DNA from: Escherichia coli
Lineage (GTDB): Bacteria; Pseudomonadota; Gammaproteobacteria; Enterobacterales; Enterobacteriaceae
Length of the DNA: 64,000 nucleotides
NCBI RefSeq assembly: GCF_044324785.1
Contig: NZ_CP172127.1
Direction: 5' to 3' (one strand)
Shown here: positions 252-26,308 of the stretch, in pieces
Layout: each line of letters opens with the position of its first letter
How positions within the stretch are numbered: position 1 is the first letter of the stretch
Position numbers and translations under genes: made by a program
The notes under the pieces: model-generated
What the model was told of the DNA's origin: nothing
Databases searched by the model: none
What the model saw: only the letters and a program-made list of their open reading frames with translations

Positions 252-255
252 TACC

Positions 256-4274: not shown

Positions 4275-4281
4275 TCTTGCC

Positions 4282-4310
4282 GCTCCCCTGCATTCCAGGG
4301 GAGCTTATTC
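4282..4310 (+). terminator. Intrinsic terminator of ldhA
   Basis: GCTCCCCTG-cattc-CAGGGGAGC hairpin followed by a T-rich tract, directly after the ldhA stop. Confidence 0.7.
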
Positions 4311-4384
4311 AGATAATCCCCAAAGACCTTTCATCCTCTATTCTTAAAATAGTCCTGAGTCAGAAACTGTAATTGAGAACCACA

Positions 4385-5070: not shown

Positions 5071-5343
5071 CTTTTCTTCCTCTGATCTTCAAGCCAAACG
5101 ACACCGCCATAAATAATAGGCAGCACAGAGGGCGACGTCGAGAGCTGTCCTGCGCGTTGCCCCGCATTTTTACTTTTTTATGGCTATTTTTTTGCCCTCT
5201 GTTTGATCAAAACATTCATTACGCTGATGTGGGGGACACAAAAGCGAAAATGCAGAAGAAAGCCATTTGCTAAAATTGAAAGATAACTACTGGGCGCGCA
5301 GCAATTTCGTGCGCCCCTCATTTGCGCAATGTAAGGGTGTCAT

Positions 5344-8300: not shown

Positions 8301-8868
8301 TCTGGTGCTGGATACGCAATGCTATTCCAACACCGGTGGTCAGGCGTCGAAAGCGACACCGCTGGGTGCAGTAACTAAGTTCGGCGAGCACGGCAAACGT
8401 AAAGCGCGTAAAGATCTTGGCGTCAGTATGATGATGTACGGTCATGTTTATGTGGCGCAGATTTCTCTCGGCGCGCAGCTCAACCAGACGGTGAAAGCGA
8501 TTCAGGAAGCGGAAGCGTATCCGGGGCCATCGCTGATCATCGCTTATAGCCCCTGTGAAGAGCATGGTTACGATCTGGCACTCAGTCACGACCAGATGCG
8601 CCAACTCACTGCTACCGGCTTCTGGCCGCTATATCGCTTTGATCCGCGTCGTGCCGATGAAGGCAAACTGCCGCTGGCGCTGGATTCACGCCCGCCGTCA
8701 GAAGCACTGGAAGAAACGTTACTTCATGAGCAGCGTTTCCGTCGTCTGAATTCGCTGCAGCCAGAAGTGGCAGAACAGTTATGGAAAGATGCTGCAGCTG
8801 ATTTGCAAAAACGCTATGACTTCCTGGCACAAATGGCCGGAAAAGCGGAAAAAAGCAACACCGATTAA
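5344..8868 (+). CDS. ydbK: Pyruvate:flavodoxin/ferredoxin oxidoreductase, 1174 aa
   Basis: 1174-aa ORF with two 4Fe-4S ferredoxin motifs (CTQCNHCVAACP, CTGCNLCVEVCP) and a TPP-binding GDG motif. Length matches E. coli YdbK/Pfo. Confidence 0.95.
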   Translation: MITIDGNGAVASVAFRTSEVIAIYPITPSSTMAEQADAWAGNGLKNVWGDTPRVVEMQSEAGAIATVHGALQTGALSTSFTSSQGLLLMIPTLYKLAGELTPFVLHVAARTVATHALSIFGDHSDVMAVRQTGCAMLCAANVQEAQDFALISHIATLKSRVPFIHFFDGFRTSHEINKIVPLADDTILDLMPQAEIDAHRARALNPEHPVIRGTSANPDTYFQSREATNPWYNAVYDHVEQAMNDFAAATGRQYQPFEYYGHPQAERVIILMGSAIGTCEEVVDELLTRGEKVGVLKIRLYRPFSAKHLLQALPGSVRSVAVLDRTKEPGAQAEPLYLDVMTALAEAFNNGERETLPRVIGGRYGLSSKEFGPDCVLAVFAELNAAKPKARFTVGIYDDVTNLSLPLPENTLPNSAKLEALFYGLGSDGSVSATKNNIKIIGNSTPWYAQGYFVYDSKKAGGLTVSHLRVSEQPIRSAYLISQADFVGCHQLQFIDKYQMVERLKPSGIFLLNTPYSADEVWSRLPQEVQAVLNQKKARFYVINAAKIARECGLAARINTVMQMAFFHLTQILPGDSALAELQGAIAKSYSSKGQDLVERNWQALALARESVEEVPLQPVNPHSANRPPVVSDAAPDFVKTVTAAMLAGLGDALPVSALPPDGTWPMGTTRWEKRNIAEEIPIWKEELCTQCNHCVAACPHSAIRAKVVPPEAMENAPASLHSLDVKSRDMRGQKYVLQVAPEDCTGCNLCVEVCPAKDRQNPEIKAINMMSRLEHVEEEKINYDFFLNLPEIDRSKLERIDIRTSQLITPLFEYSGACSGCGETPYIKLLTQLYGDRMLIANATGCSSIYGGNLPSTPYTTDANGRGPAWANSLFEDNAEFGLGFRLTVDQHRVRVLRLLDQFADKIPAELLTALKSDATPEVRREQVAALRQQLKDVAEAHELLRDADALVEKSIWLIGGDGWAYDIGFGGLDHVLSLTENVNILVLDTQCYSNTGGQASKATPLGAVTKFGEHGKRKARKDLGVSMMMYGHVYVAQISLGAQLNQTVKAIQEAEAYPGPSLIIAYSPCEEHGYDLALSHDQMRQLTATGFWPLYRFDPRRADEGKLPLALDSRPPSEALEETLLHEQRFRRLNSLQPEVAEQLWKDAAADLQKRYDFLAQMAGKAEKSNTD

Positions 8869-8896
8869 ATGTTCTGGATAAGAATTATCCAATTCT

Positions 8897-9006
8897 AAAA
8901 AAAAGCCCGAACGACTGTTCGGGCTTGTCTTTTTATATGTTGGAAAATCAGTGGCAATGCAATGGCCCAACAGAAAATAAAATCTGTGACAATAAAGGCA
9001 TATAAC
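8897..9006 (-). ncRNA. micC: MicC sRNA, Hfq-dependent repressor of ompC/ompD
   Basis: The reverse complement reads GTTATATGCCTTTATTGTCACAGATTTTATTTTCTGTTGGGCCATTGCATTGCCACTGATTTTCCAACATATAAAAAGACAAGCCCGAACAGTCGTTCGGGCTTTTTTTT, which matches the MicC sequence as I remember it. It sits in the pfo-ompN intergenic region as in K-12. Confidence 0.9.
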
Positions 9007-9233
9007 CCGCGCAGAATAACGTATAGCAAATTAAAAGTATAATTTTTATTTTGTATGTATTATCTCCAATACATTCACCAGACTTATTATCATTTCAGAA
9101 GAATTATTTGATTAAGGTTTTACTTAAGGCGTAACAAATAATATTTATCGGCTAACTGAACTTCTCCTTTAGGATGTTTTCACTCCCCGAAATGGGGATA
9201 AAAGGCAAATAAAATAACTAAAGGATTTATTCA

Positions 9234-10367
9234 ATGAAAAGCAAAGTACTGGCACTTTTAATTCCTGCCCTGCTCGCCGCAGGTGCTGCACATGCAGCCG
9301 AAGTTTATAATAAAGACGGCAACAAATTAGATCTGTATGGCAAAGTTGATGGCCTGCATTATTTTTCTGATAATTCAGCGAAAGATGGCGACCAGAGCTA
9401 TGCGCGTCTGGGTTTTAAAGGCGAAACCCAAATTAACGATCAACTAACTGGCTACGGTCAATGGGAATACAATATTCAGGCAAACAACACTGAATCCTCA
9501 AAAAACCAGTCATGGACCCGTCTGGCATTTGCCGGATTGAAATTTGCAGATTACGGTTCTTTCGATTACGGACGTAATTATGGCGTAATGTACGACATCG
9601 AAGGCTGGACCGATATGCTGCCTGAATTTGGCGGTGACTCTTATACCAATGCAGACAACTTTATGACTGGTCGAGCCAATGGCGTCGCGACTTATCGTAA
9701 TACTGATTTCTTCGGTCTGGTAAATGGTCTGAACTTCGCGGTGCAGTATCAAGGTAACAACGAAGGTGCCAGTAATGGTCAGGAAGGCACCAACAACGGA
9801 CGTGATGTTCGCCATGAAAACGGTGACGGCTGGGGTCTTTCCACAACATATGATTTAGGCATGGGCTTTAGCGCTGGTGCGGCATACACCTCTTCTGACC
9901 GCACCAATGACCAGGTTAACCATACTGCGGCGGGTGGTGATAAAGCAGACGCATGGACTGCTGGGCTAAAATACGATGCTAACAATATTTACCTGGCAAC
10001 CATGTATTCAGAAACGCGTAATATGACCCCGTTTGGCGACAGCGATTATGCTGTTGCAAACAAAACCCAGAACTTTGAAGTTACTGCACAGTACCAGTTT
10101 GATTTTGGTCTGCGTCCGGCAGTCTCTTTCCTGATGTCTAAAGGCCGTGACCTGCACGCTGCCGGTGGTGCAGACAACCCGGCAGGTGTTGATGATAAAG
10201 ATCTGGTTAAATACGCCGATGTTGGCGCGACTTACTATTTCAACAAAAATATGTCCACCTACGTTGACTATAAAATCAACCTGTTGGATGAAGATGACAG
10301 CTTCTACGCTGCCAACGGCATCTCTACCGATGATATTGTCGCTTTAGGTCTGGTTTATCAGTTCTAA
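9234..10367 (+). CDS. ompN: Outer-membrane porin OmpN, 377 aa
   Basis: Signal peptide [21 protein letters not shown], a general-porin fold sequence, and C-terminal ...GLVYQF. Confidence 0.9.
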
Positions 10368-10375
10368 ATCCTCCT

Positions 10376-10400
10376 GCCCGCTGTTATGGCGGGCTTTTTC
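10376..10400 (+). terminator. Intrinsic terminator of ompN
   Basis: GCCCGCtgttatgGCGGGC followed by TTTTTC. Confidence 0.75.
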
Positions 10401-10426
10401 TGCTTATTCTTCCTCCTTTGATCTAA

Positions 10427-10942
<516 letters not shown>

Positions 10943-10950
10943 CACTAACG

Positions 10951-10975
10951 CCCGCACATTGCTGCGGGCTTTTTG
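10951..10975 (+). terminator. Intrinsic terminator of uspF
   Basis: CCCGCAcattgcTGCGGG followed by CTTTTT. Confidence 0.7.
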
Positions 10976-11117
10976 ATTCATTTCGCAAATGTGCTGACAT
11001 TTTCCCCTCTAATCCGTACCATACACGCCACTGTTTTTATATCAGATTTCTTATGCTGGGCATTCCGGCATGACGCATACTCTTCTGATGCCATATAACG
11101 AATTGAGTCGCTTTTAA

Positions 11118-12053
11118 ATGTCGCAAAATCAAGAAATTAGTAAGAAAGAACAATACAACCTGAACAAATTACAAAAACGTCTGCGTCGTAACGTGGGCGA
11201 AGCCATTGCTGACTTCAATATGATTGAAGAAGGCGATCGCATCATGGTTTGCCTCTCCGGGGGTAAAGACAGCTATACCATGCTGGAGATTCTGCGCAAT
11301 TTGCAGCAAAGCGCGCCAATCAATTTTTCGCTGGTGGCTGTTAACCTCGATCAAAAGCAACCGGGCTTCCCGGAACACGTTCTGCCCGAGTATCTTGAAA
11401 AGCTGGGCGTTGAGTACAAGATTGTTGAAGAGAACACTTACGGTATCGTGAAAGAGAAAATTCCAGAGGGCAAAACCACTTGCTCACTGTGTTCTCGCCT
11501 GCGTCGCGGTATCCTTTATCGTACCGCAACGGAACTAGGGGCGACGAAGATCGCACTGGGTCACCATCGTGACGATATCCTGCAAACGCTGTTCTTAAAT
11601 ATGTTCTACGGTGGCAAGATGAAAGGTATGCCTCCGAAACTGATGAGCGATGATGGCAAACATATCGTGATTCGTCCGCTGGCCTACTGCCGCGAGAAAG
11701 ATATTCAGCGCTTTGCCGATGCAAAAGCGTTCCCGATTATTCCGTGCAACCTGTGCGGTTCACAGCCTAACCTGCAACGTCAGGTAATTGCTGACATGTT
11801 GCGTGACTGGGATAAACGTTATCCGGGGCGTATCGAGACGATGTTCAGCGCAATGCAGAATGTGGTGCCGTCGCATCTGTGCGATACCAACCTGTTCGAT
11901 TTCAAAGGCATTACCCACGGTTCTGAAGTGGTTAACGGGGGTGATCTGGCGTTTGATCGCGAAGAGATCCCACTACAACCGGCGGGCTGGCAGCCAGAAG
12001 AAGATGAAAATCAGTTGGATGAGTTACGACTGAATGTGGTTGAAGTGAAATAA
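11118..12053 (+). CDS. ttcA: tRNA 2-thiocytidine(32) synthetase TtcA, 311 aa, with a non-K-12 N-terminus
   Basis: SGGKDS PP-loop and CxxC motifs. The N-terminus [17 protein letters not shown] differs from what I remember of K-12 TtcA (MQENQQITKKEQY...), where Rac integration replaces the 5' end. Confidence 0.9.
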
Positions 12054-12098
12054 CCAGGATAGCGCCCGATGCGCAAGCGTATCGGGCTACTCTTATGG

Positions 12099-12132
12099 AG
12101 GCCGGATAAGACGCGGCCAGCGTCGCGTCCGG
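12099..12132. repeat. REP (BIME) element in the ttcA-dbpA intergenic region
   Basis: GGCCGGATAAGACGCGGCCAGCGTCGCGTCCGGC is the canonical E. coli REP palindrome. Confidence 0.75.
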
Positions 12133-12181
12133 CAATCCCGGAGAAGATGTTTACTCTTGCACCCTGCGATTCAACATTTCA

Positions 12182-13555
12182 TTATTTTAATAACCGCACC
12201 CGGCACGTTTTTCCTTTAATCTTCCCGCCCTGCAACTGTTTCCATGCTTTATGAGCAACAGCCTGACGCACCGCGACATAGACATGCGCCGGATGCACGG
12301 CGATTTTGCCAATATCTGCGCCATCAAGCCCGATATCTCCTGTCAGCGCACCTAATACATCACCCGGGCGCATTTTGGCTTTTTTCCCGCCATCGATACA
12401 TAACGTTGCCATTTCGGCTTCCAGCGGCACAATGGAACTATTAACTGGCGGCGTTTGCCAGTTAAGTTTTATCTGCAACATGTCAGAAATGATATTGGCC
12501 CGCTGTGCTTCTTCCGGGGCACAGAAACTGATCGCCAGACCGCTATTTCCTGCACGCGCTGTGCGACCGATGCGATGTACATGAACTTCAGGATCCCACG
12601 CCAGCTCAAAGTTCACCACCAGCTCAAGCGATTTAATATCCAGACCTCGCGCAGCAACATCAGTCGCAACCAGTACACGGGCGCTACCGTTAGCAAAACG
12701 TACCAGGGTCTGATCGCGATCGCGTTGCTCCAGATCGCCGTGTAACGACAATGCACTTTGCCCTACTTCATTCAGCGCGTCGCAGACAGCCTGGCAATCT
12801 TTTTTGGTATTGCAAAACACCACACAAGAGGATGGCTGATGCAAGCTTAATAACCGTTGCAACAGAGGAATTTTGCCTTTACTGGATGTCTCATAAAATT
12901 GTTGTTCAATGGGTGGCAAAGCATCTGTTGAGTCAATTTCAATCGCCAAAGGATCGCGTTGCACTCGTCCGCTGATTGCGGCGATGGCTTCCGGCCAGGT
13001 TGCCGAAAACAGAAGCGTCTGTCGAGATGCAGGCGCAAAACGGATGACATCATCAATGGCATCGCTAAATCCCATATCCAGCATGCGGTCGGCCTCATCC
13101 ATCACCAAAGTATTCAGCGCATCCAGTGATACCGTGCCTTTTTGCAAGTGATCCAGCAAACGACCCGGCGTTGCCACGATAATATGCGGCGCATGTTGCA
13201 ACGAATCACGCTGCAAACCGAACGGTTGACCACCGCACAACGTCAAAATTTTGGTATTTGGCAGAAAACGCGCCAACCGACGCAATTCACCTGCCACCTG
13301 ATCCGCCAGTTCACGCGTAGGACACAGCACTAAAGCCTGGGTTTGAAATAGCGACGCATCAATTTGCTGTAACAAGCCGAGGCCAAAAGCCGCCGTTTTG
13401 CCGCTGCCGGTTTTCGCCTGCACGCGAACATCTTTTCCGGCAAGGATCGCCGGAAGCGCGGCGGCCTGCACCGGCGTCATGGTTAAATAACCCAACTCAT
13501 TAAGGTTCGTGAGTTGGGCGGGAGGCAAAACATTCAGGGTAGAAAAAGCGGTCAC
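12182..13555 (-). CDS. dbpA: ATP-dependent RNA helicase DbpA (23S rRNA-specific DEAD-box), 457 aa, GTG start
   Basis: DEAD-box motifs (AKTGSGKT, DEAD, SAT, HRIGRTAR) and a C-terminal RNA-binding domain. The codon at 13553-13555 is GTG. Confidence 0.9.
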   Translation of the reverse strand: MTAFSTLNVLPPAQLTNLNELGYLTMTPVQAAALPAILAGKDVRVQAKTGSGKTAAFGLGLLQQIDASLFQTQALVLCPTRELADQVAGELRRLARFLPNTKILTLCGGQPFGLQRDSLQHAPHIIVATPGRLLDHLQKGTVSLDALNTLVMDEADRMLDMGFSDAIDDVIRFAPASRQTLLFSATWPEAIAAISGRVQRDPLAIEIDSTDALPPIEQQFYETSSKGKIPLLQRLLSLHQPSSCVVFCNTKKDCQAVCDALNEVGQSALSLHGDLEQRDRDQTLVRFANGSARVLVATDVAARGLDIKSLELVVNFELAWDPEVHVHRIGRTARAGNSGLAISFCAPEEAQRANIISDMLQIKLNWQTPPVNSSIVPLEAEMATLCIDGGKKAKMRPGDVLGALTGDIGLDGADIGKIAVHPAHVYVAVRQAVAHKAWKQLQGGKIKGKTCRVRLLK

Positions 13556-13584
13556 AATCTATTCTCGTGGTCATCGACGCAAAG

Positions 13585-13758
13585 TTAGCAGGCGCGTATC
13601 CTCGCAGATCTACGCTCACGATGCGACAATTTAATCGGTTCTTCATCGGGTGGTGGGTCAGGCATGGGTTGCGGGCGAGGGATTGGATCGGGCACAGGAA
13701 CAGGATCGCCAGGAATCGGTTCAGGGACAGGAATTTGCAAATAAATAAGTGTCGTCAT
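13585..13758 (-). CDS. Candidate small proline-rich protein or leader peptide, 57 aa: MTTLIYLQIPVPEPIPGDPVPVPDPIPRPQPMPDPPPDEEPIKLSHRERRSARIRAC
   Basis: Hand-translated ORF not in the >=60-aa track. The sequence ccGGAGGGaaatATG gives a strong SD 4 nt upstream of the ATG. Its stop lies 27 nt upstream of the dbpA GTG start. Confidence 0.4.
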   Translation of the reverse strand: MTTLIYLQIPVPEPIPGDPVPVPDPIPRPQPMPDPPPDEEPIKLSHRERRSARIRAC

Positions 13759-13815
13759 ATTTCCCTCCGGTCATTGGGTGGACTCTTAAAGGGTAGACGC
13801 TGATAAATAACAGGC

Positions 13816-13844
13816 AAAAAAAAGCCGACTCATCAAAGTCGGCG
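13816..13844 (-). terminator. Intrinsic terminator downstream of zntB
   Basis: On the minus strand, GCCGACTTTGATGAGTCGGC is followed by TTTTTTTT. Confidence 0.75.
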
Positions 13845-14032
13845 TCGTACGAATCAATTGTGCTATGCAGTAATTCAAAAAAGGAAGTAAGACAATATGG
13901 AGCGCAACGCCCATCGCTTGACGTTGCATTCACCTGCAAGGGAGATATTGCCCTGAATGGGTAGAGAGTTTATTGACTTCGCTCAAACTTTGCGGCGTTT
14001 TTGTATACAGACAGCCGGAAAAATTGCTTTTG

Positions 14033-15037
<1,005 letters not shown>

Positions 15038-15270
15038 TTATTTTGTAGTCTAGCCTTCTGGCCCTGTTACGCAACATCTCATCACCCCATTACCCTGAAA
15101 TGATTAATAAAATTCTGTCTAAATTGAATACAAAAAGCAAAATGCTTTTCCATATACAAACCGTGTGAAGTGTTAAATAGCGTCTATCATTATCAGAATT
15201 ATCTGATCATATGACGTGGCTTTTTTGCGATCGGATAGCAACAAAAATTGATAAAAATAATGGGATCTCA

Positions 15271-16503
15271 ATGATTACGCACAACTTCAATACCCTGGAC
15301 TTACTCACCAGTCCTGTCTGGATCGTTTCGCCCTTTGAGGAACAGTTAATTTATGCCAATAGCGCGGCGCGACTGTTGATGCAAGACCTCACGTTTAGTC
15401 AGCTACGAACCGGTCCCTATTCCGTCTCCTCACAAAAAGAACTGCCAAAATACCTCTCCGATCTGCAAAACCAACACGATATTATCGAAATCCTCACCGT
15501 TCAGCGCAATGAAGAGGAAACAGCATTGAGCTGTCGGCTTGTTTTGCGAAAGCTGACAGAAGCAGAACCGGTGATTATTTTCGAAGGTATCGAAGCACCG
15601 GCAACGCTGGGTTTAAAAGCCAGTCGCTCGGCAAATTATCAGCGCAAAAAACAAGGTTTTTATGCGCGCTTTTTTCTGACTAACTCTGCACCAATGTTGT
15701 TGATTGACCCGTCACGAGATGGACAAATCGTCGATGCTAACCTCGCCGCGCTCAATTTCTATGGTTATAACCATGAAACGATGTGCCAGAAACATACCTG
15801 GGAAATAAATATGCTCGGGCGTCGCGTCATGCCTATCATGCATGAAATCTCGCATTTACCCGGTGGTCATAAGCCTTTGAATTTTATTCATAGGCTGGCG
15901 GATGGTTCGACTCGTCATGTGCAGACCTATGCCGGTCCGATTGAAATTTATGGCGACAAGCTCATGTTATGTATTGTGCATGATATTACTGAGCAAAAAC
16001 GGCTGGAGGAGCAGCTGGAACATGCTGCCCACCATGACGCGATGACAGGATTACTGAATCGGCGACAGTTTTATCACATTACCGAGCCAGGCCAAATGCA
16101 GCACCTCGCCATCGCCCAGGATTACAGCTTGTTGCTCATCGACACCGATCGTTTTAAACACATTAACGATCTCTATGGGCATTCTAAAGGTGATGAGGTG
16201 TTATGCGCCCTCGCCCGCACTCTCGAAAGTTGCGCTCGCAAAGGCGATTTGGTGTTTCGTTGGGGAGGCGAAGAGTTTGTCTTATTGCTACCAAGAACCC
16301 CACTGGATACCGCGCTTTCGCTGGCTGAAACTATCCGCGTAAGCGTGACAAAAGTGAGTATTTCGGGCTTACCACGCTTTACCGTCAGCATTGGTGTGGC
16401 GCATCACGAAGGAAATGAAAGCATCGATGAACTGTTTAAACGCGTTGATGATGCTTTGTATCGGGCGAAAAATGATGGACGCAACCGCGTGCTGGCGGCA
16501 TAA
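15271..16503 (+). CDS. dgcM: Diguanylate cyclase DgcM (PAS-PAS-GGDEF), about 410 aa
   Basis: GGEEF motif (RWGGEEFVLLL) with PAS regions. The start at MITHNF (15271) is preferred over the ORF-track 15211. Confidence 0.8.
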   Translation: MITHNFNTLDLLTSPVWIVSPFEEQLIYANSAARLLMQDLTFSQLRTGPYSVSSQKELPKYLSDLQNQHDIIEILTVQRNEEETALSCRLVLRKLTEAEPVIIFEGIEAPATLGLKASRSANYQRKKQGFYARFFLTNSAPMLLIDPSRDGQIVDANLAALNFYGYNHETMCQKHTWEINMLGRRVMPIMHEISHLPGGHKPLNFIHRLADGSTRHVQTYAGPIEIYGDKLMLCIVHDITEQKRLEEQLEHAAHHDAMTGLLNRRQFYHITEPGQMQHLAIAQDYSLLLIDTDRFKHINDLYGHSKGDEVLCALARTLESCARKGDLVFRWGGEEFVLLLPRTPLDTALSLAETIRVSVTKVSISGLPRFTVSIGVAHHEGNESIDELFKRVDDALYRAKNDGRNRVLAA

Positions 16504-16523: not shown

Positions 16524-17087
16524 TCAACGACTGCGCTTAGCGTGGCGCTCCCAGTTTTCTTGCTTCGCCTGCGCCGTTTTACGTAGTGCGACGTAACACG
16601 CCCCGCTGCCGCCATGATGCGGTAGCGCGGTGCAATATGCCTGAACATCATCAAATTCGGTCAGCCAGCGCGCCACATAGCTGCGGACAATATTGGCATG
16701 CGATTTATCATCCCGCCCTTTACCATGAATAATCAGCACGTTACGCAAACCATCCGCCAGGGCTTGTTGAATAAAACTGAACACCATTTTGCGGCACTCT
16801 TCCACCGGCTGGCGCAAAAGATTCAGGCTCGCCTGTTGCGGATATTTACCACTGCGCAGCTTATCCAGCACCCCATGTTGCAACCCTTCCCGCCGAAACT
16901 CCAGCGGCTGACTTAGTGGGATGATGTCGAGAAATCCGGTGGTGAGGAAATTATCAAGCTGCAGCGTGTCGATACGCTGCGGCGCACGTTGGTTACGCGT
17001 TGGATGCCAGTGGACATCGGTAGCACGTTTCAGCGGCTGGACATCTTCCATGGCGTCAAGAAACAGCGATTTGTCGTCAAGGTTCAT
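16524..17087 (-). CDS. smrA: SmrA (Smr-domain DNA endonuclease, YdaL), 187 aa
   Basis: 187-aa ORF with a C-terminal Smr domain (LIIHGKGRDD...). Position next to dgcM matches K-12 ydaL. Confidence 0.8.
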   Translation of the reverse strand: MNLDDKSLFLDAMEDVQPLKRATDVHWHPTRNQRAPQRIDTLQLDNFLTTGFLDIIPLSQPLEFRREGLQHGVLDKLRSGKYPQQASLNLLRQPVEECRKMVFSFIQQALADGLRNVLIIHGKGRDDKSHANIVRSYVARWLTEFDDVQAYCTALPHHGGSGACYVALRKTAQAKQENWERHAKRSR

Positions 17088-17281
17088 GTAACCTCCTATG
17101 CACCTTCACACGTCGTGATTCAGACGGGTTAATTGTTCATACTTACTGCATCGTTCCCTTCACAGATTGAAACAATACTCTACTTCATACCTGTGAGTAT
17201 CTGCGCAGGCGGGGCATTTTATACTAGCCTGTTAGCAGTATCGAACAGTTTAGCCCGAGTTTAATTCAGCACAGGCTCCGA

Positions 17282-18796
17282 TCAGGATGATTTATTCATA
17301 GCAGGAACCAACAAAAATGCGATAAATAACAGACCACTGATTAGCAGAAAGGTATCCGAAAATGCCATAGTTTGCGCCTCCCTCAGCATCAATTGACTTA
17401 ATAATTTGGTTGAAGCCAGTATTTCCGATGTCTGGTCACTTCCACTGCGATTAAAAAACAAAGCACTTCTGGAAATGAAGTCATTCACCGTATGGGGAAC
17501 AGAAACCATTTTTTCACCCATTCTCGAAAAATGAAAATTAGTTCGATTATTGAGAATAGAGCCACACAGGGCAATACCAATCGCGCCCCCAAGATTACGT
17601 GTTAAATTAAATACACCAGAGGCTAACTTCAGCCGTTCTTTTGGAATTCCCCCCAGCGTTAATGTTACGATGGGGGCCATCGCAAACTGCTGCGAAATCC
17701 CTCTAATTGCCTGTGGAAACAGTAACTCCTGCCATCCCCATTCGTGGGTTATCGGGGTAAAAAGATACATTGAAAACACAAATCCACCCAGCCCCGCCAT
17801 CAACAGCCATCGCAGATTTATTTTTTTACTTAACCAGAAGTAAAAGGGAACAGAAAATAACTGGAAAATACCTGTTGTGCAAACGGCAAAACCTATCTCT
17901 TCGGCATTTAATCCGCGAACCTGCCCCAAAAACACAGGTATTAAATATACAGTAGAGAATATCCCAACCCCTCCAGAAAAAGAAAAAAAACATCCCAGCG
18001 TGAAATTTTTATCCTTAAAAGCATGAAGATCCATTATCGGATTGGATATTGTAAGTGTACGCACAGCAAATAAAATAAAACTCACCAATGCCAGAACTGA
18101 TGTCAGCAAAATAGTATTATCATCCAGCCATCCCCAGCGCGCTCCTTCTTCAACGGTATATTCCAGACATCCCAGTGTCATGGCCAACAGGATAATACTC
18201 GGATAATCAGCAACTTTCAGTAAAGAGAGATCAGGTTTATCAAAATTAACCAGAAAAGGAATACTCAAAACTAAATATATGCCAGGTAATATATTGATAT
18301 AAAATAGCCATCGCCAGTCGAGATTATCAGTGATCCAGCCCCCCAGAGTTGGCCCTAGCGTCGGTGACAGTGAGGCCAGCGCACTGACTACCGCAGCAGC
18401 CAACCCCAGCTCTTTACCCTGGTAATAAATAAACGCCGTCGTGAAAACTAAAGGGATCATGGATGCGCCAGCCGCTCCCTGTAAAGCACGAAACAAAATC
18501 ATGATCTGAATATTCCATGCAAGTCCACACGCGATACTCATTAAAGTAAATATTCCCGCGGATAGAGTAAAAAGCCAACGAGTGGAAAATACCCGTGACA
18601 GCCACCCAGAGAGCGGAATAACAATAATCTCAGCAATTAAATAGCTGGTCTGAAGCCAGGCCATTTCGTCTTTACCTGCGGACAGACCACCACCTATTTC
18701 ATTTAGGGATGACGATACAATTTGAATATCAAGCTGAGCAATAAATAATCCCATACACATACTGGCGAAAGCAATATGTTTACGCATAGACATCAT
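17282..18796 (-). CDS. DHA2-family MFS efflux permease (EmrB/QacA-like, 14 TMS), 504 aa; accessory relative to K-12
   Basis: 504-aa polytopic protein with MFS signature regions and an AT-rich reading frame. Translationally coupled to the upstream HlyD-family gene. Confidence 0.8.
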   Translation of the reverse strand: MMSMRKHIAFASMCMGLFIAQLDIQIVSSSLNEIGGGLSAGKDEMAWLQTSYLIAEIIVIPLSGWLSRVFSTRWLFTLSAGIFTLMSIACGLAWNIQIMILFRALQGAAGASMIPLVFTTAFIYYQGKELGLAAAVVSALASLSPTLGPTLGGWITDNLDWRWLFYINILPGIYLVLSIPFLVNFDKPDLSLLKVADYPSIILLAMTLGCLEYTVEEGARWGWLDDNTILLTSVLALVSFILFAVRTLTISNPIMDLHAFKDKNFTLGCFFSFSGGVGIFSTVYLIPVFLGQVRGLNAEEIGFAVCTTGIFQLFSVPFYFWLSKKINLRWLLMAGLGGFVFSMYLFTPITHEWGWQELLFPQAIRGISQQFAMAPIVTLTLGGIPKERLKLASGVFNLTRNLGGAIGIALCGSILNNRTNFHFSRMGEKMVSVPHTVNDFISRSALFFNRSGSDQTSEILASTKLLSQLMLREAQTMAFSDTFLLISGLLFIAFLLVPAMNKSS

Positions 18797-19824
18797 CTCT
18801 CATCAACACTGACGGTGACGGACAGTCCCGGGCGAAGAAGTTGCTTTAATTCCTTTGCGTCGTCAAATGCAATCCGTACCGGGACACGCTGAACAATTTT
18901 GGTGAAATTGCCAGTGGCATTTTCTATCGGAATCAAGCTGAAACTGGCTCCTGTCGCTGGGGAAAGGCTTTCAATGTGACCGTGAAACACTTCCCCTTTG
19001 AGAATATCAGCACGGATCTCAGCCTTCATTCCTGGCTTCATTCCCGCTATTTGGTTTTCTTTATAATTTGCATCAACCCACAACTCACTGACTGGTACTA
19101 GTGAAACTAACGATGTGCCGCCTTCCACCCAACTGCCTGTATGGGCGCTGCGGTTTGCGACAATGCCATCAATCGGCGCACGAACAAGGGTATATTCCAG
19201 ATCCAGTAGTGCCTGAGTCAAAGCGGCCTGAACTTCTTCGATACTTGCACGTACGTTTTCTTCCTGAGCAGATAAAACTGCCAGCCGTTGCTTCTCCACC
19301 ATGAAATCGTTCGCGGCTTTGCGCTCCTTTGCTGCGACCTGCTGGTAGTCAAACCTGGCGTTATCAATAATTTGTTGCGATATTGCCGCTGATTGTGCGA
19401 GTTTTTCATAACGTTCAGTATCTCGCAGGCGCTTTTGCTCCTCATGTTTTACTGCCTGCCATGTTTCACTGGCACTTTGAATTATCGACTGCTGCATCGC
19501 AATAGTGGCTTGAATGCTTTCGAGATTGGCTTTGCTACTTTTTATTTTTGCCTCAAGCCTGGCGACATTTGCACGATAATCCCGATCATCGAGACGCAGG
19601 ATAATATCGCCTTTTTTTACGCTCTGATTATCGCGCACCTCTATAGCAGAAATATAACCAGAAACTTTACTTGCCACCGTGGTGATATTACCACCAATGT
19701 AAGCATCATCCGTCGTCTGTATAAATCTTCCTTTGCTTACCCACCAGATAAAAAAGACAACGCCAGCCAAAATAATACCGATCGCTACCACCCCAATAAG
19801 CTGTTTTTTAGAAATTATCATCAC
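18793..19824 (-). CDS. HlyD-family membrane fusion/periplasmic adaptor protein (EmrA-like), 343 aa
   Basis: N-terminal TM anchor, long coiled-coil and a C-terminal beta-barrel. Its stop overlaps the MFS start. Confidence 0.8.
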   Translation of the reverse strand: MMIISKKQLIGVVAIGIILAGVVFFIWWVSKGRFIQTTDDAYIGGNITTVASKVSGYISAIEVRDNQSVKKGDIILRLDDRDYRANVARLEAKIKSSKANLESIQATIAMQQSIIQSASETWQAVKHEEQKRLRDTERYEKLAQSAAISQQIIDNARFDYQQVAAKERKAANDFMVEKQRLAVLSAQEENVRASIEEVQAALTQALLDLEYTLVRAPIDGIVANRSAHTGSWVEGGTSLVSLVPVSELWVDANYKENQIAGMKPGMKAEIRADILKGEVFHGHIESLSPATGASFSLIPIENATGNFTKIVQRVPVRIAFDDAKELKQLLRPGLSVTVSVDER

Positions 19825-19917
19825 TCTTTACACCGTATATATCCGGAAACTTGCATTCGTCATATTTAAAATTTAACATGGCTTATTTGATGATTTCTGA
19901 CAAAATACCTACTGTAA

Positions 19918-20733
19918 ATGACAATCACACTGCAACCCAAAGCATCACCAGGGCATCACATTATCGGACTGGATTCGGAACATCTGAATGGAGGCACAGT
20001 TCCCTGGCATAAACATCTCTATGCCCAGTTGCTTTACCCGGCTGAAGGAGTCGTTCGTGTATGGGCTGGAGAAAGCGTCTGGCTAGTCCATGCCAGCAGC
20101 GCGCTTTGGCTGCCCCCACAAATGCCGCATAAGTTTGTTGCGACAGGCAACGTACTTTTAAAAACCGTACTGGTTTCAGAAGCGGAAAGTGAAACGCTGG
20201 GAAAAGTTTGCTTCATGACGGGTATTTCACCCCTGTTAAGAGAATTACTAATTGCAATTAACCAACTTCCACCGTCGCAAAGTACCACAGATAAACAACA
20301 GTTACGTTTTTCAGCCCTCGAGACACTGATACTTCAGGAAATAAAAATGGGGGTGAAAATGTCACTTGAACTCCCTTGGCCAAATGATGAGCGGCTACAG
20401 CAGCTTTGTGAGAATTTGCTAAACAACCAAGGGTATCTACCAACACTGGATAATCTAGCGGATAAAATTAACGTCAGTAGCCGTACACTCATGCGCTTAT
20501 TTGTTAAAGAGACGGGATTAACATTTCGCCACTGGGTTCAGCAAATGCACGTTATTTCTGCAGTGACGCTTCTTGATGATGGATATTCGTTGACCAAAAT
20601 TGCCCATCGTCTGGGCTATGCCTCAGCTGAATCGTTCGGCAATATGTTTAAGCGTCGAACGGGCTACTCGCCCGGTAAATTTACTCGTCGATTAACGATG
20701 CATGATTATGCAATCACAAGACAAATGATTTAA
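19918..20733 (+). CDS. AraC/XylS-family transcriptional regulator with N-terminal cupin-like domain, 271 aa
   Basis: C-terminal double HTH (RTLMRLF... / YSLTKIAHRLGYASAESFGNMFKRRTGYSPGKF). Divergent from the efflux operon. Confidence 0.8.
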   Translation: MTITLQPKASPGHHIIGLDSEHLNGGTVPWHKHLYAQLLYPAEGVVRVWAGESVWLVHASSALWLPPQMPHKFVATGNVLLKTVLVSEAESETLGKVCFMTGISPLLRELLIAINQLPPSQSTTDKQQLRFSALETLILQEIKMGVKMSLELPWPNDERLQQLCENLLNNQGYLPTLDNLADKINVSSRTLMRLFVKETGLTFRHWVQQMHVISAVTLLDDGYSLTKIAHRLGYASAESFGNMFKRRTGYSPGKFTRRLTMHDYAITRQMI

Positions 20734-20803
20734 CTTATATTTTCGTGAAATCTGTCACTGAAGAAAATTGGCAACGGATGGGTAAAACCGTTATAACACT
20801 GTC

Positions 20804-20899
20804 ACCGGTCACCAGGACCCCAGGCCGGATTTAAGACGAGGATGCACTGCTGTGTGTACTGTAGAGTCTGGCGGATGTCGACAGACTCTATTTTTTTAT
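20804..20899 (+). ncRNA. mcaS: McaS (IsrA) sRNA, variant 5' stem-loop
   Basis: The 3' two-thirds (...GGATTTAAGACGAGGATGCACTGCTGTGTGTACTGTAGAGTCTGGCGGATGTCGACAGACTCTATTTTTTTAT) matches K-12 McaS as I remember it. The 5' part differs (ACCGGTCACCAGGACCCCAGGCCGG). It ends at its terminator, adjacent to the abgR stop, as in K-12. Confidence 0.8.
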
Positions 20900-20905
20900 G
20901 CAGTT

Positions 20906-21814
20906 TTAACTTTGCAGATAGCCGCATTCTCGCCGAAATTGCGTGATTAATGACGCGGTCAGTGGTGTCTGGCGACTATCACGCCGCTGAATCAAATAAT
21001 AGGTCGCTTTCGGTAAAATTTCGCTAACCGGCAACATCACCAGCCCCTGTCCGTGCAAGGGATCGCAGCCCATTTCTTCAGGTAGTATGCTGAGAAAATC
21101 GCTTTTTGCCACCAGACTGATACAGGCTGAGAACGTCTCGCAGACTACGCCGACCTGTGGCGTTTGCGCCTGATCGTCAAGCAATTCACTCAAGTGTTTG
21201 TAGTAGCTGCCGTGTGGCGTCGGCATTGTCCAGCTGTAGTCCAGTAACTGTTTGATCGAACGGGCACCAATGGCGGGATGTCCCGGGCGGCAAAAGATCG
21301 CGAATTGTTTTTCCAGTAATTTCTCAAAAGTAAATTCGTGGTCGTAGGGTCCCTGATAATAGGTATTGATGGTGAAATCCAGTTCCCCCTGGCGCAATTC
21401 ATTAATCATCGATACCAGTTGCCCTTCCATAATGCGTACTTTTACCTGCGGATGCTGCTGATGAAAACGAGATATGACAGCTGGCATCAGACTGCGGGAA
21501 ATACTGGCCCCCATGCCGATATTAATTTGCCCTGCCAGTTGCCCTTGTCGTTGGCGAATATCCTCTTGCGCTGCGCGCAGCTCTTCAAGAATAAGACTGG
21601 CGTGCTGATAAAAACTTTCACCGGCATCAGTTAACGTCACGCCTTTACTACGGCGAAAAAAGAGTTGTGCCGCCAACCCTTCTTCCAGCTCCTGAATAGA
21701 TTTACTCAGTGCCGGTTGCGACATATTCAACATTCGGCTCGCTCCGCGAATGCTGCCCTGACGAGCCACTTCAACAAAAGCCCGAATTTGATGAATTTTT
21801 ACCTGAAAAGCCAT
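20906..21814 (-). CDS. abgR: LysR-family regulator AbgR, 302 aa
   Basis: 302-aa LTTR with N-terminal HTH, divergent from abgABT. Confidence 0.85.
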   Translation of the reverse strand: MAFQVKIHQIRAFVEVARQGSIRGASRMLNMSQPALSKSIQELEEGLAAQLFFRRSKGVTLTDAGESFYQHASLILEELRAAQEDIRQRQGQLAGQINIGMGASISRSLMPAVISRFHQQHPQVKVRIMEGQLVSMINELRQGELDFTINTYYQGPYDHEFTFEKLLEKQFAIFCRPGHPAIGARSIKQLLDYSWTMPTPHGSYYKHLSELLDDQAQTPQVGVVCETFSACISLVAKSDFLSILPEEMGCDPLHGQGLVMLPVSEILPKATYYLIQRRDSRQTPLTASLITQFRRECGYLQS

Positions 21815-21989
21815 GACGCCACCGATAACCGTTATTTATCAGACCAAAGAAACTGGCATCTACTTTAATGCAGATGATTGTGTCAGGGTAATTTATGAAC
21901 GGTTAAAACTGTGAAAAATCAGTTAGTGATAAGTAAAAACTATCGCTACGTGAACCGGGTCACACTTTTTACTGATGACGGGAAAGGTT

Positions 21990-23300
21990 ATGGAGTCTTT
22001 GAATCAATTTATTAATTCGCTTGCCCCAAAATTATCGCACTGGCGACGTGATTTTCACCACTATGCAGAGTCTGGCTGGGTGGAATTCCGCACTGCCACC
22101 CTTGTTGCGGAAGAATTGCACCAGCTCGGTTATTCACTGGCGCTGGGCCGCGAAGTAGTTAATGAAAGTAGCCGGATGGGATTACCTGATGAATTCACTC
22201 TACAACGCGAATTCGAGCGCGCTCGTCAACAGGGTGCGCTAGAACAATGGATTGCGGCTTTTGAAGGCGGTTTCACTGGCATCGTCGCTACCCTGGATAC
22301 CGGTCGCCCCGGTCCGGTGATGGCTTTCCGTGTCGATATGGACGCGCTGGATCTCAGTGAAGAACGGGATGTCAGCCATCGCCCCTATCGCGACGGTTTT
22401 GCGTCATGTAACGCCGGAATGATGCATGCCTGTGGTCATGATGGACATACCGCCATTGGGCTTGGGCTGGCGCATACCCTTAAACAGTTCGAGTCCGGAC
22501 TACATGGCGTCATCAAACTGATTTTTCAACCTGCAGAGGAAGGTACGCGTGGCGCGCGGGCGATGGTCGATGCAGGAGTAGTGGATGATGTTGATTATTT
22601 TACTGCCGTGCACATTGGCACTGGTGTACCTGCGGGCACAGTAGTGTGCGGCAGTGATAATTTTATGGCAACCACCAAATTTGACGCGCACTTCACCGGG
22701 ACCGCCGCTCACGCAGGCGCAAAACCAGAAGACGGTCACAATGCCTTGTTGGCGGCAGCACAAGCAACTCTTGCACTGCATGCAATCGCCCCGCACAGCG
22801 AAGGCGCTTCCAGAGTAAACGTGGGCGTTATGCAGGCAGGAAGCGGTCGTAATGTTGTTCCCGCCTCAGCGTTGCTGAAAGTGGAAACACGCGGGGCCAG
22901 CGACGTCATTAATCAATATGTTTTTGACCGTGCACAACAAGCGATTCAGGGCGCAGCAACCATGTATGGTGTCGGCGTTGAAACTCGTCTGATGGGTGCA
23001 GCTACCGCCAGTTCTCCTTCGCCGCAATGGGTCGCATGGTTGCAAAGTCAGGCAGCTCAGGTCGCCGGGGTCAATCAGGCCATTGAACGTGTTGAAGCGC
23101 CTGCGGGTTCCGAAGATGCCACATTAATGATGGCCCGCGTGCAGCAACATCAAGGGCAAGCCTCCTATATGGTGTTTGGCACACAGCTGGCGGCAGGTCA
23201 TCACAACGAAAAATTCGATTTTGACGAGCAGGTTCTCGCTATTGCCGTCGAAACGCTGGCGCGCACCGCGCTCAATTTTCCCTGGACGCGAGGTATCTGA
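21990..23300 (+). CDS. abgA: p-Aminobenzoyl-glutamate hydrolase subunit A (M20 peptidase), about 436 aa
   Basis: M20 family. Start taken at MESLNQF. Confidence 0.85.
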   Translation: MESLNQFINSLAPKLSHWRRDFHHYAESGWVEFRTATLVAEELHQLGYSLALGREVVNESSRMGLPDEFTLQREFERARQQGALEQWIAAFEGGFTGIVATLDTGRPGPVMAFRVDMDALDLSEERDVSHRPYRDGFASCNAGMMHACGHDGHTAIGLGLAHTLKQFESGLHGVIKLIFQPAEEGTRGARAMVDAGVVDDVDYFTAVHIGTGVPAGTVVCGSDNFMATTKFDAHFTGTAAHAGAKPEDGHNALLAAAQATLALHAIAPHSEGASRVNVGVMQAGSGRNVVPASALLKVETRGASDVINQYVFDRAQQAIQGAATMYGVGVETRLMGAATASSPSPQWVAWLQSQAAQVAGVNQAIERVEAPAGSEDATLMMARVQQHQGQASYMVFGTQLAAGHHNEKFDFDEQVLAIAVETLARTALNFPWTRGI

Positions 23301-24745
23301 TGCAGGAAATCTATCGTTTTATCGACGATGCGATTGAAGCCGATCGCCAACGTTATACCGATATTGCCGATCAAATCTGGGATCATCCAGAAACACGTTT
23401 TGAAGAGTTCTGGTCAGCGGAGCATCTGGCTTCGGCGCTGGAGTCTGCAGGCTTCACCGTTACCCGCAACGTAGGCAATATCCCAAATGCCTTTATTGCT
23501 TCGTTTGGTCAAGGCAAACCGGTTATCGCCCTGCTGGGGGAATATGACGCCCTGGCAGGTTTAAGTCAGCAAGCCGGTTGCGCGCAACCTACATCCGCGA
23601 CGCCCGGTGAAAATGGTCACGGTTGCGGACACAATTTGCTGGGAACCGCCGCCTTTGCCGCAGCAATAGCCGTCAAGAAATGGCTGGAACAATATGGGCA
23701 AGGCGGCACGGTGCGCTTTTATGGTTGTCCTGGCGAAGAAGGCGGCTCGGGTAAAACGTTCATGGTCCGCGAGGGGGTATTTGATGATGTGGATGCGGCA
23801 CTCACCTGGCACCCGGAAGCCTTTGCCGGTATGTTCAATACCCGCACGCTGGCAAACATTCAGGCATCATGGCGCTTTAAAGGGATCGCAGCACATGCCG
23901 CGAACTCCCCTCATTTGGGACGCAGCGCCCTTGATGCCGTAACGTTGATGACCACTGGCACCAACTTCCTCAACGAACATATTATTGAAAAAGCGCGCGT
24001 ACACTATGCCATCACAGATAGCGGCGGGATCTCGCCCAACGTGGTCCAGGCGCAGGCAGAAGTGCTTTATCTTATCCGCGCCCCCGAAATGACCGATGTG
24101 CAGCATATTTATGATCGGGTCGCCAAAATCGCCGAAGGTGCGGCATTGATGACCGAAACCACGGTTGAATGCCGCTTCGACAAAGCCTGTTCCAGTTATC
24201 TCCCGAATCGCACCTTAGAAAATGCCATGTACCAGGCCCTATCCCATTTTGGTACCCCGGAATGGAACTGCGAAGAACTGGCTTTTGCGAAACAAATTCA
24301 GGCTACGCTCACCTCCAACGATCGGCAAAACAGTCTGAATAATATCGCCGCAACCGGTGGCGAAAACGGCAAGGTTTTTGCACTACGTCATCGTGAAACG
24401 ATACTGGCGAATGAAGTCGCTCCATATGCCGCCACCGATAACGTGCTTGCGGCATCGACTGATGTCGGCGACGTCAGTTGGAAACTGCCTGTTGCCCAGT
24501 GTTTCAGCCCCTGTTTTGCCGTCGGTACACCGCTACATACGTGGCAACTGGTTAGCCAGGGGCGAACATCTATTGCTCATAAAGGAATGCTGCTGGCGGC
24601 GAAAACTATGGCAGCAACCACAGTCAATCTCTTCATTGATTCAGGGCTATTGCAAGAATGCCAACAAGAGCATCAGCAAGTTACGGACACGCAACCGTAT
24701 CACTGCCCTATCCCGAAAAACGTGACACCGTCACCTTTAAAATAA
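23300..24745 (+). CDS. abgB: p-Aminobenzoyl-glutamate hydrolase subunit B (M20 peptidase), 481 aa
   Basis: 481-aa M20 peptidase. Its start overlaps the abgA stop. Confidence 0.85.
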   Translation: MQEIYRFIDDAIEADRQRYTDIADQIWDHPETRFEEFWSAEHLASALESAGFTVTRNVGNIPNAFIASFGQGKPVIALLGEYDALAGLSQQAGCAQPTSATPGENGHGCGHNLLGTAAFAAAIAVKKWLEQYGQGGTVRFYGCPGEEGGSGKTFMVREGVFDDVDAALTWHPEAFAGMFNTRTLANIQASWRFKGIAAHAANSPHLGRSALDAVTLMTTGTNFLNEHIIEKARVHYAITDSGGISPNVVQAQAEVLYLIRAPEMTDVQHIYDRVAKIAEGAALMTETTVECRFDKACSSYLPNRTLENAMYQALSHFGTPEWNCEELAFAKQIQATLTSNDRQNSLNNIAATGGENGKVFALRHRETILANEVAPYAATDNVLAASTDVGDVSWKLPVAQCFSPCFAVGTPLHTWQLVSQGRTSIAHKGMLLAAKTMAATTVNLFIDSGLLQECQQEHQQVTDTQPYHCPIPKNVTPSPLK

Positions 24746-24775
24746 CAACAACAACGCAAACACAACAAACGAGGA

Positions 24776-26308
24776 ATGCCCATGAGTATGTCATCCATAC
24801 CGTCGTCCTCCCAATCCGGGAAGCTCTATGGCTGGGTCGAAAGAATTGGTAACAAGGTTCCCCATCCTTTTTTGCTCTTTATCTATTTGATTATCGTACT
24901 CATGGTGACGACGGCAATTTTGTCGGCCTTTGGCGTCAGTGCGAAAAACCCGACCGATGGTACGCCGGTGGTCGTGAAAAACCTGCTCAGTGTGGAAGGA
25001 TTACACTGGTTTTTACCCAATGTGATTAAAAACTTTAGCGGTTTTGCTCCACTTGGTGCGATCCTGGCGCTGGTTTTAGGTGCCGGCCTAGCGGAGCGCG
25101 TCGGCTTACTGCCAGCGCTAATGGTTAAAATGGCATCGCATGTGAATGCCCGCTACGCCAGTTATATGGTGCTGTTTATTGCTTTTTTCAGCCACATTTC
25201 TTCCGATGCGGCGTTAGTGATCATGCCACCGATGGGTGCGCTAATTTTTCTGGCGGTGGGCAGGCATCCAGTTGCAGGTTTACTGGCCGCCATTGCAGGC
25301 GTAGGTTGCGGCTTTACGGCTAATTTACTGATTGTCACAACCGACGTGTTGCTGTCGGGGATCAGCACGGAGGCTGCGGCTGCGTTCAATCCGCAAATGC
25401 ACGTCAGTGTAATTGATAACTGGTATTTTATGGCCAGCTCCGTAGTCGTACTGACGATTGTTGGCGGCCTGATAACCGACAAAATCATTGAGCCACGTTT
25501 AGGTCAATGGCAGGGAAACAGCGATGAGAAACTGCAGACATTAACCGAAAGTCAGCGTTTTGGTTTACGCATAGCAGGTGTCGTATCGCTACTTTTTATT
25601 GCTGCGATTGCGCTGATGGTGATCCCGGAAAACGGGATATTGCGCGATCCGATTAATCACACCGTGATGCCATCCCCCTTTATTAAAGGTATCGTGCCAC
25701 TGATCATTCTTTTTTTCTTTGTGGTCTCGCTGGCTTATGGCATCGCTACCCGCACAATTCGACGTCAGGCGGATTTACCGCATTTAATGATTGAACCGAT
25801 GAAAGAGATGGCGGGATTTATCGTGATGGTTTTTCCCCTCGCCCAGTTTGTCGCCATGTTTAACTGGAGCAACATGGGGAAATTCATCGCCGTGGGGCTG
25901 ACCGATATACTGGAAAGTTCAGGGCTTAGCGGCATCCCGGCGTTTGTCGGTCTGGCGTTGCTTTCCTCTTTCTTATGCATGTTTATCGCCAGCGGTTCCG
26001 CAATCTGGTCGATTCTGGCCCCCATTTTCGTACCGATGTTTATGCTACTTGGCTTTCACCCGGCATTTGCGCAAATCCTCTTTCGTATTGCCGACTCATC
26101 CGTATTGCCTTTAGCGCCGGTATCTCCTTTTGTTCCACTGTTTCTTGGATTCCTGCAACGTTACAAACCAGACGCGAAACTGGGTACTTACTATTCGTTA
26201 GTTTTGCCCTATCCACTTATCTTTTTGGTGGTATGGCTGCTGATGTTGCTGGCGTGGTATCTTGTTGGCTTGCCGATAGGTCCGGGTATTTACCCACGTT
26301 TGTCTTAA
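24776..26308 (+). CDS. abgT: p-Aminobenzoyl-glutamate transporter AbgT, about 508-510 aa
   Basis: Polytopic AbgT-family transporter. Confidence 0.85.

Follow-up and report, generated by a model that had tools for sequence, protein, structure and literature searches.

A probable horizontally acquired EmrAB-like efflux module with its own AraC-family regulator between smrA and mcaS in Escherichia coli

We analysed a 64,000-nt window of the E. coli contig NZ_CP172127.1 (all coordinates below are positions in this window) in which a block of acquired DNA lies between the core gene smrA and the gene for the small RNA (sRNA) McaS. The block encodes an EmrB-like permease of the major facilitator superfamily (MFS), an EmrA-like periplasmic adaptor of the HlyD family, and a divergently transcribed AraC-family regulator (Table 1). 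Its foreign origin is evident from conserved native DNA that it replaces and from related modules in other genera. We consider it probable that the three genes form a self-contained, horizontally acquired efflux module. In kind it is an ordinary accessory efflux islet, an uncharacterised member of a well-known type that would not surprise specialists.

Much of this layout had been anticipated. The original prediction described a 3.6-kb block separating smrA from mcaS, an emrAB-like two-gene operon with overlapping stop and start codons, a divergent AraC/cupin regulator and a GC content below that of the flanking core. The block spans exactly 3600 bp; the adaptor stop codon and the MFS start codon overlap by 4 nt (ATGA); the regulator gene lies on the opposite strand, beyond a 96-nt spacer; and the GC profile gives 44.1% for the block compared with 50.0% and 51.1% for its flanks. 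Within the block, GC ranges from 39 to 48% in a windowed analysis, with the lowest value (39.2%) at 17750-18249. The AraC gene, expected to end about 70 bp from the McaS start, has its stop codon 70 nt from it on the same strand. The one figure that did not hold was a distance of about 150 bp between smrA and mcaS in K-12, since 227 nt separate the smrA ATG from the McaS start in K-12-type genomes. All three open reading frames (ORFs) of the block are intact in the window, and the adaptor gene has an alternative GTG start at 19824, upstream of the ATG at 19821. The block may also be silenced by H-NS, as the prediction supposed, a suggestion for which moderate AT-richness is the sole support; no chromatin immunoprecipitation or RNA sequencing data on H-NS occupancy or derepression at the block were found.

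Table 1. Features of the smrA-mcaS locus in the window
Feature	Position	Strand	Remarks
Acquired block	17098..20697		3600 bp; spacer and three genes; 111 bp of native DNA here in K-12-type genomes
smrA, core gene	16524..17087	-	Pfam Smr domain
Spacer S, acquired DNA between MFS stop codon and smrA	17098..17281	-
DHA2-family MFS efflux permease gene, EmrB-like	17282..18796	-	504 aa; ORF intact
HlyD-family periplasmic adaptor gene, EmrA-like	18793..19821	-	342 aa from ATG at 19821
Divergent control region between adaptor and regulator genes	19822..19917		96 nt
AraC-family regulator gene	19918..20733	+	271 aa; N-terminal cupin/AraC_binding domain
McaS promoter region, retained	20745..20797	+	Read directly from sequence
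McaS sRNA gene, block-linked allele	20804..20899	+	Rfam RF00115, 113.5 bits

The efflux assignment depended on homology to EmrA and EmrB, and this homology is clear, with both proteins aligning end to end with the EmrB and EmrA chains of the solved structures 8zal/8zar. The MFS protein scores 406 bits on TIGR00711, the model of the DHA2/EmrB subfamily (cutoff 230.2), its residues 9-496 covering positions 3-480 of a 485-position profile, and 139.7 bits on Pfam MFS_1. It aligns with the EmrB chain 8zal_J over residues 12-489 (E 5.8e-56). A crude hydropathy scan of the pump gives 12 clear segments, and the alignment with EmrB, which has 14 transmembrane segments, implies two more within residues 350-480. 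Antiporter motif C (GP..GG, in transmembrane segment 5) is present as SPTLGPTLGGWI, aligned with APICGPILGGYI of EmrB; under the strict G-x3-GP-x2-GG pattern the first G is unmatched. Membership of the adaptor in the HlyD family is supported by the Pfam models HlyD_D23 (67.5 bits, cutoff 30), HlyD_3 (60.9 bits, cutoff 22.2) and Biotin_lipoyl_2 (41.3 bits, cutoff 29.8), and hydropathy gives it an N-terminal membrane anchor of one hydrophobic segment (residues 8-26). The adaptor aligns with the EmrA chain 8zar_A over residues 5-340 (E 2e-43), and its best NCBIfam match is the EmrA/EmrK subfamily model TIGR00998, although the score is below the cutoff; models of AaeA and MdtN are also matched at lower scores. 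The regulator belongs to the cupin-AraC class, with Pfam matches to HTH_18 (78 bits, cutoff 33.6), AraC_binding (34.9 bits, cutoff 21.1) and Cupin_2 (29.7 bits, cutoff 27.2); it reached no cutoff among the NCBIfam equivalogs.

Homology to these families suggests how the module might work. The cupin domain of the AraC-family protein would sense a small molecule, and the protein would control a divergent promoter in the 96-nt spacer. From this promoter the adaptor and pump genes would be transcribed, with translational coupling via the ATGA overlap. The EmrA-like adaptor, anchored in the inner membrane, would then connect a proton-driven DHA2 antiporter with an outer-membrane channel whose gene lies elsewhere, by analogy with EmrAB most probably TolC, and the assembled complex would expel a hydrophobic or aromatic compound. 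The part played by TolC, the direction of regulation and the nature of substrate and inducer are inferred from such kinship.

Several observations weigh against the reading as a self-contained, acquired efflux module. The pump scores 220.2 bits on the EmrB exception model NF000391 (cutoff 925), and the adaptor scores 267.4 bits on TIGR00998 (cutoff 390.8) and 207.5 bits on the EmrA equivalog NF011715 (cutoff 563). Given these scores below the cutoffs, the block proteins are paralogues of EmrAB and not orthologues, and the substrate of EmrAB is therefore not transferable to the block pump. There is no outer-membrane factor gene in the block, nor in any orthologous module that we examined. EmrAB-like pumps of Acinetobacter baumannii gave no antibiotic phenotype (PMC10812440). 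A gene and domain scan and a repeat search of the block revealed no transposase, integrase, tRNA gene or terminal repeats, and the block thus lacks the mobility signatures expected of an islet. The MFS gene carries real lesions in some strains (homopolymer indels in N3 and ETEC4071, and IS1 insertions elsewhere), and the block is also inactivated by a deletion of about 1.85 kb in the sequence type (ST) 73 group and decayed in Escherichia albertii. Finally, no experiments or publications on this module were found in the full-text literature.

The module can be compared with several known systems. Like EmrAB-TolC of E. coli K-12, it has an adaptor-then-pump operon, a DHA2 pump, an anchored adaptor and no outer-membrane factor gene in the operon. 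It differs in that the match is at the level of paralogues only (220 vs 925 bits for EmrB, 207 vs 563 bits for EmrA), in its divergent cupin-AraC regulator where EmrAB has the MarR-type EmrR, and in being accessory and not core. EmrR is encoded upstream of emrAB, in an emrRAB arrangement. EmrKY and MdtNOP of K-12 are related through the adaptor, which matches the EmrA/EmrK profile (267 bits) and the MdtN equivalog (163 bits), but neither score reaches its cutoff (391 and 376 bits, respectively), and those systems are core K-12 genes at other loci. AmfAB and AmfCD of A. baumannii are EmrAB-like adaptor and MFS pairs in operons that likewise have no outer-membrane gene (PMC10812440); they are likened to the block by description, and an AraC regulator is unmentioned in that report. 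Amf pumps affect growth at acid pH and with bile salts and leave antibiotic minimal inhibitory concentrations unchanged (PMC10812440), demonstrating that pumps of this kind may serve stress adaptation rather than antibiotic resistance.

The Amf pumps, together with AaeAB-type relief valves, are precedents for another view of the module, in which the pump exports an endogenous or dietary metabolite or mitigates envelope or acid stress instead of conferring drug resistance, and the cupin-AraC protein senses the metabolite. We regard this as a genuine possibility, but not the favoured one. Across enterics the pump is accompanied by a conserved, dedicated regulator of the ligand-binding AraC type, the Amf phenotypes at acid pH and with bile salts fit such a role, and the lower-scoring matches of the adaptor to AaeA and MdtN are in keeping with it. 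On the other hand, the best profile matches are to the multidrug-type EmrA and EmrB, and no metabolic genes travel with the module to indicate a substrate; nothing else speaks specifically against a metabolite exporter.

Our reading of the block as an acquired efflux module draws on its junctions, which were set by comparison with the K-12-type strain C600. The left junction (17097/17098) is 10 nt upstream of the smrA ATG, and the right junction (20697/20698) falls within the AraC ORF, 36 nt from its 3' end. Between them, the 3600 bp at 17098-20697 stand in place of 111 unrelated bp of K-12. The earlier description of an insertion was therefore right in that a foreign block was inserted, but this was not a pure insertion, as 111 bp were replaced. 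Similarly, the block had been placed between the divergent smrA and mcaS promoters; the McaS promoter is indeed retained, whereas the native smrA upstream region is gone. The 111 bp of K-12 have no similarity above shuffled controls to the block, to spacer S or to the E. albertii spacer, and spacer S itself (the leftmost 184-199 nt of the block) matches neither K-12 nor the related module of Kluyvera. Both the block and the native right flank begin with ATGCA (17098-17102 and 20698-20702), a pentamer that occurs eight times in the 3.8 kb overall. Its presence at the block ends may reflect microhomology, target duplication or chance.

Modules with the same arrangement (MFS and HlyD genes divergent from an AraC gene) are present in Kluyvera cryocrescens (CP134165), K. 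intermedia, K. ascorbata, Providencia rettgeri, a few Salmonella enterica and another enteric. Those examined in other genera have a different neighbourhood each time and no mobility genes. Identity to the K. cryocrescens proteins is 82% for MFS, 68% for HlyD and 79% for AraC at the amino acid level, the Kluyvera MFS orthologue (505 aa) is colinear with the 504-aa block pump, and nucleotide identity to the Kluyvera module is 71% over 17297-20695. The modules of Kluyvera, Providencia and Salmonella, no characterised copy of which was found in the literature, are like that of E. coli in gene order, orientation, gene sizes and a conserved element in the divergent spacer. They differ in their neighbourhoods and in their regulators, which have 259-262 aa and no tail encoded by native DNA. 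More distantly, in Alpha- and Betaproteobacteria, conservation extends only to the HlyD-MFS pair.

The regulator tail locates the right boundary precisely. Nucleotide homology to Kluyvera stops at 20695, 2 nt before homology to K-12 resumes at 20698, and codons 261-271 of AraC with the stop codon (20698-20733) are native E. coli DNA, 36 nt in common with K-12 that encode the tail MHDYAITRQMI. AraC homologues of other genera end 9-12 residues short of the E. coli protein. With its tail encoded by native DNA, the foreign regulator gene must have lost its own stop codon at the junction, so that it reads into the native sequence.

Outgroups for the empty site were fetched via the fast-evolving neighbour DgcM; SmrA clusters at 90% identity merge all Escherichia. 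Odd-length SmrA variants (P0120 and P0223) were considered as outgroups and rejected, as they are E. coli proteins with C-terminal frameshifts. The 111 bp of K-12 are homologous to the smrA-upstream DNA of E. fergusonii (score 51, shuffle maximum 28) and to DNA upstream of smrA in a Citrobacter-like genome and another enteric. In a distant enteric, about 75% identical to E. coli, colinearity with K-12 extends from smrA over the 111-bp segment and the McaS promoter to mcaS, and ogt comes immediately after mcaS. Because the 111 bp are conserved as native smrA upstream DNA, K-12 has the ancestral arrangement, and the block was inserted in place of this segment. Horizontal acquisition, as predicted, is thus shown from three sides: native DNA in outgroups, modules in unrelated contexts, and the end of Kluyvera homology at 20695. 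The block also has the empty site preserved in relatives, the deviant composition and the relatives in other genera that characterise an islet.

Two side observations concern the outgroups. At the E. fergusonii locus (14886-15079), the native segment upstream of smrA is represented by its first 47 nt, which run directly into the 3' half of mcaS, with ogt beyond, and McaS of this species appears truncated; a pca/CoA-transferase cluster separates dgcM and smrA there. The distant enteric (SRR26188688, 3074-3434) has a full McaS-like gene with a CRP-like promoter between smrA and ogt and no abg operon, which suggests that mcaS was in place at this locus before abgRABT arrived.

Acquisition appears to be old, as the block is intact in E. 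ruysiae, with identical junctions, and decayed in E. albertii. The latter shares the left junction and spacer S (score 110, shuffle maximum 38), followed by relics of the block, namely the 3' part of the MFS gene (window 17354-17412; score 56, shuffle maximum 32) and the 3' end of AraC, and then McaS and the same abg remnants as described below. A search of representative genomes of other Escherichia species did not recover the MFS gene. Synonymous divergence (dS) between the window and E. ruysiae is 0.08-0.16 for the block genes but 0.35 for smrA and 0.95 for dgcM; between the window and the B2 strain SE15 it is 0.004-0.024 for the block genes compared with 0.06-0.08 for adjacent core genes. 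The 208 nt to the right of the block (20698-20905) are 96-97% identical among carriers of different species and 87-89% identical to K-12, and flanking core genes are 97.6-98.6% identical between the two haplotypes. These comparisons would most simply be read as an old insertion, the haplotype of which later passed from one Escherichia lineage to another through homologous recombination. As a separate observation, dgcM (15271-16503) is unusually diverged between the window and E. ruysiae, with 83.6% nucleotide identity.

Some of these data bear on the reverse history, in which the block is ancestral to E. coli, K-12 arose by deletion, and the 36 nt at the 3' end of AraC are a relic of the gene. 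The block at the identical site in E. ruysiae, the relics in E. albertii and the outlying position of K-12 in the 208 nt right of the block would all be expected from such a history. We nevertheless judge it highly improbable. The 111 bp of K-12 are the conserved native smrA upstream region of other enterics, unlike the block; to produce the K-12 state, a deletion would need an end point no more than 2 nt from where the foreign module naturally stops; dS of the block genes is 2- to 10-fold below that of adjacent core genes, in comparisons of species as well as of E. coli lineages; and representative genomes of other Escherichia species lack a detectable MFS gene. An interpretation of the 36 nt as a deletion relic was rejected for kindred reasons: homologues of other genera end there, the Kluyvera homology stops at 20695, and the 111 bp are native.

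The divergent control region of the acquired module was compared by aligning the spacers of E. coli, E. ruysiae, Kluyvera, Salmonella, Providencia and another enteric. The best candidate for an operator is a 41-nt element (19868-19908) whose conservation extends from E. coli to Providencia. In addition, 18 nt beside the adaptor start (region 19822-19845) that are kept in all other genera aligned are missing from E. coli and E. ruysiae, a loss that could alter the 5' untranslated region or promoter of the operon. An AraC homologue with 40% identity in Acinetobacter is also divergent from an MFS exporter gene.

We then considered whether the module is still functional. RefSeq annotation by the NCBI Prokaryotic Genome Annotation Pipeline (PGAP) flags the MFS gene as 'frameshifted' (17341-18796) in N3, UTI89, SE15, ETEC4071, F344 and WCHEC96200. 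These six flags, the real inactivations in several lineages and in E. albertii, and the loss of 18 nt from the control region of E. coli and E. ruysiae could be taken to mean that the cluster is a decaying, functionally dead remnant whose pseudogenes have not yet been purged. This appears improbable to us. The 504-codon MFS ORF is open in the window, UTI89, SE15, EC958, F344 and WCHEC96200, and is colinear with the Kluyvera orthologue and EmrB; the adaptor and regulator genes are intact in 7/7 E. coli genomes checked. The same pump sequence type is annotated as intact in EC958 (WP_000987381.1), and the pseudogene end at 17341 coincides with the stop codon (17341-17343) of a variant without T17355 that is seen in SFBU1023 and ECMA0423. 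This suggests that the RefSeq reference protein is itself the frameshifted form, which would explain the flags. The ratio of nonsynonymous to synonymous divergence (dN/dS) between the E. coli and E. ruysiae block copies is 0.10-0.17, which indicates purifying selection on the block genes. Taken together, purifying selection and open ORFs on the one hand and real lesions on the other make the acquired module look conditionally useful and dispensable.

The lesions themselves have some further features. The 1-nt deletions of N3 and ETEC4071 sit in C6 tracts (17649-17654 and 18339-18344) and an A8 tract (17976-17983) of the MFS gene, which could be slippage hot spots or sites of long-read sequencing errors. 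'Shigella flexneri SFBU1023' and 'E. coli ECMA0423', both GTDB species representatives, have an insertion of about 1.7 kb in the adaptor gene (locus 7612-5927) and many small indels in neighbouring core genes, and are probably error-rich assemblies or decaying genomes.

Distribution was surveyed in 5426 complete E. coli genomes, 1457 of which carry the block; 1316 of these carriers have at least 80% of it. The 111-bp allele is found in 3858 genomes, and the block is absent from these 3858 and from K-12. It is thus not universal in the species, as the notion of an insertion had required. Carriers include the B2 strains UTI89, 536, SE15 and EC958/ST131, and in the group of Nissle 1917/ATCC 25922-type strains (ST73) half of the block is left after the internal deletion of about 1.85 kb mentioned above. 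When the E. coli set was searched with the E. ruysiae MFS/HlyD sequence, full-length matches were at most 94% identical, and no copy of the block resembling that of E. ruysiae was found.

A second polymorphism adjoins McaS. A deletion in the abg region (window 21120-26162) has taken out abgA and abgB completely, together with the 5' part of abgR and most of abgT, in 1170 of the 5426 genomes, with end points that are the same or nearly so in UTI89, SE15, EC958, E. ruysiae and E. albertii. SFBU1023 and ECMA0423 likewise lack this segment. The block and the abg deletion occur together in UTI89, SE15 and EC958, and the block occurs with an intact abg operon in the window, N3, F344, ETEC4071 and WCHEC96200. 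Over positions 1-15000 the window is at most 98.8% identical to any complete E. coli genome, N3 being the best match; smrA and dgcM are 100% identical to those of N3 and the block 99.8%. The window comes from a sparsely sampled or locally mosaic lineage.

Arrival of the block also changed the surroundings of its neighbours. On the same strand, 194 nt now separate the pump gene from smrA downstream of it, and the Shine-Dalgarno region is all that is left of the native upstream DNA of smrA. A promoter and terminator scan predicted no terminator between the pump gene and smrA. A candidate replacement promoter in spacer S, TCGATA-17-TAAAAT on the minus strand (17244 to 17216), is a consensus match only; the promoter-like site of spacer S is conserved in E. 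ruysiae and E. albertii, and E. albertii has kept spacer S despite losing the pump genes. Counts in the scan were not clearly above the shuffled expectation, and individual promoter and terminator sites are therefore leads only. Given that the native upstream region has been replaced, expression of smrA must now depend on a promoter within the acquired spacer or on transcripts that read through from the pump operon. The gene, which encodes a DNA nuclease, could be co-induced with the efflux operon or driven by the promoter of a foreign spacer.

On the other side, the McaS promoter consists of a CRP-like site (GTGA-N6-TCAC, 20745-20758), a -35-like TTGGCA (20768-20773) and a -10-like TATAAC (20792-20797), and this region is conserved in E. 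ruysiae as well as across the two haplotypes. Expression of McaS is CRP-dependent. The same scan found no terminator-like site between the AraC stop codon and McaS, and an AraC transcript may cross the McaS promoter and end at the McaS terminator; such read-through would couple expression of the regulator to the level of McaS, an sRNA of biofilm formation and motility. The first hairpin of McaS (20804-20830) has the block-linked allele GGUCACCAGGACCCCAGGCC vs GGCGCAGAGGAGACAAUGCC in K-12, which differ by one compensatory pair change and keep the GGA loop. That the insertion rewired the context of smrA and McaS in carrier lineages (B2 and others), besides adding a pump, seems to us rather unlikely as an account of the block, and the regulatory consequences for the two genes are speculation built on structural facts. 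The locus is in any case a clean natural experiment, combining a promoter replacement at smrA with an altered McaS context.

About a quarter of sequenced E. coli thus have one more putative TolC-type efflux system, the ninth, which comes with its own sensor-regulator, and the carriers include major extraintestinal pathogenic B2 lineages (ST131, ST95 and SE15-like strains). Efflux inventories based on K-12 omit the pump, and with RefSeq pseudogene marks on an intact ORF, pangenome and resistome screens could miss it as well. If it exports a drug, a bile component or a host metabolite, the module would be a lineage-specific fitness or tolerance factor.

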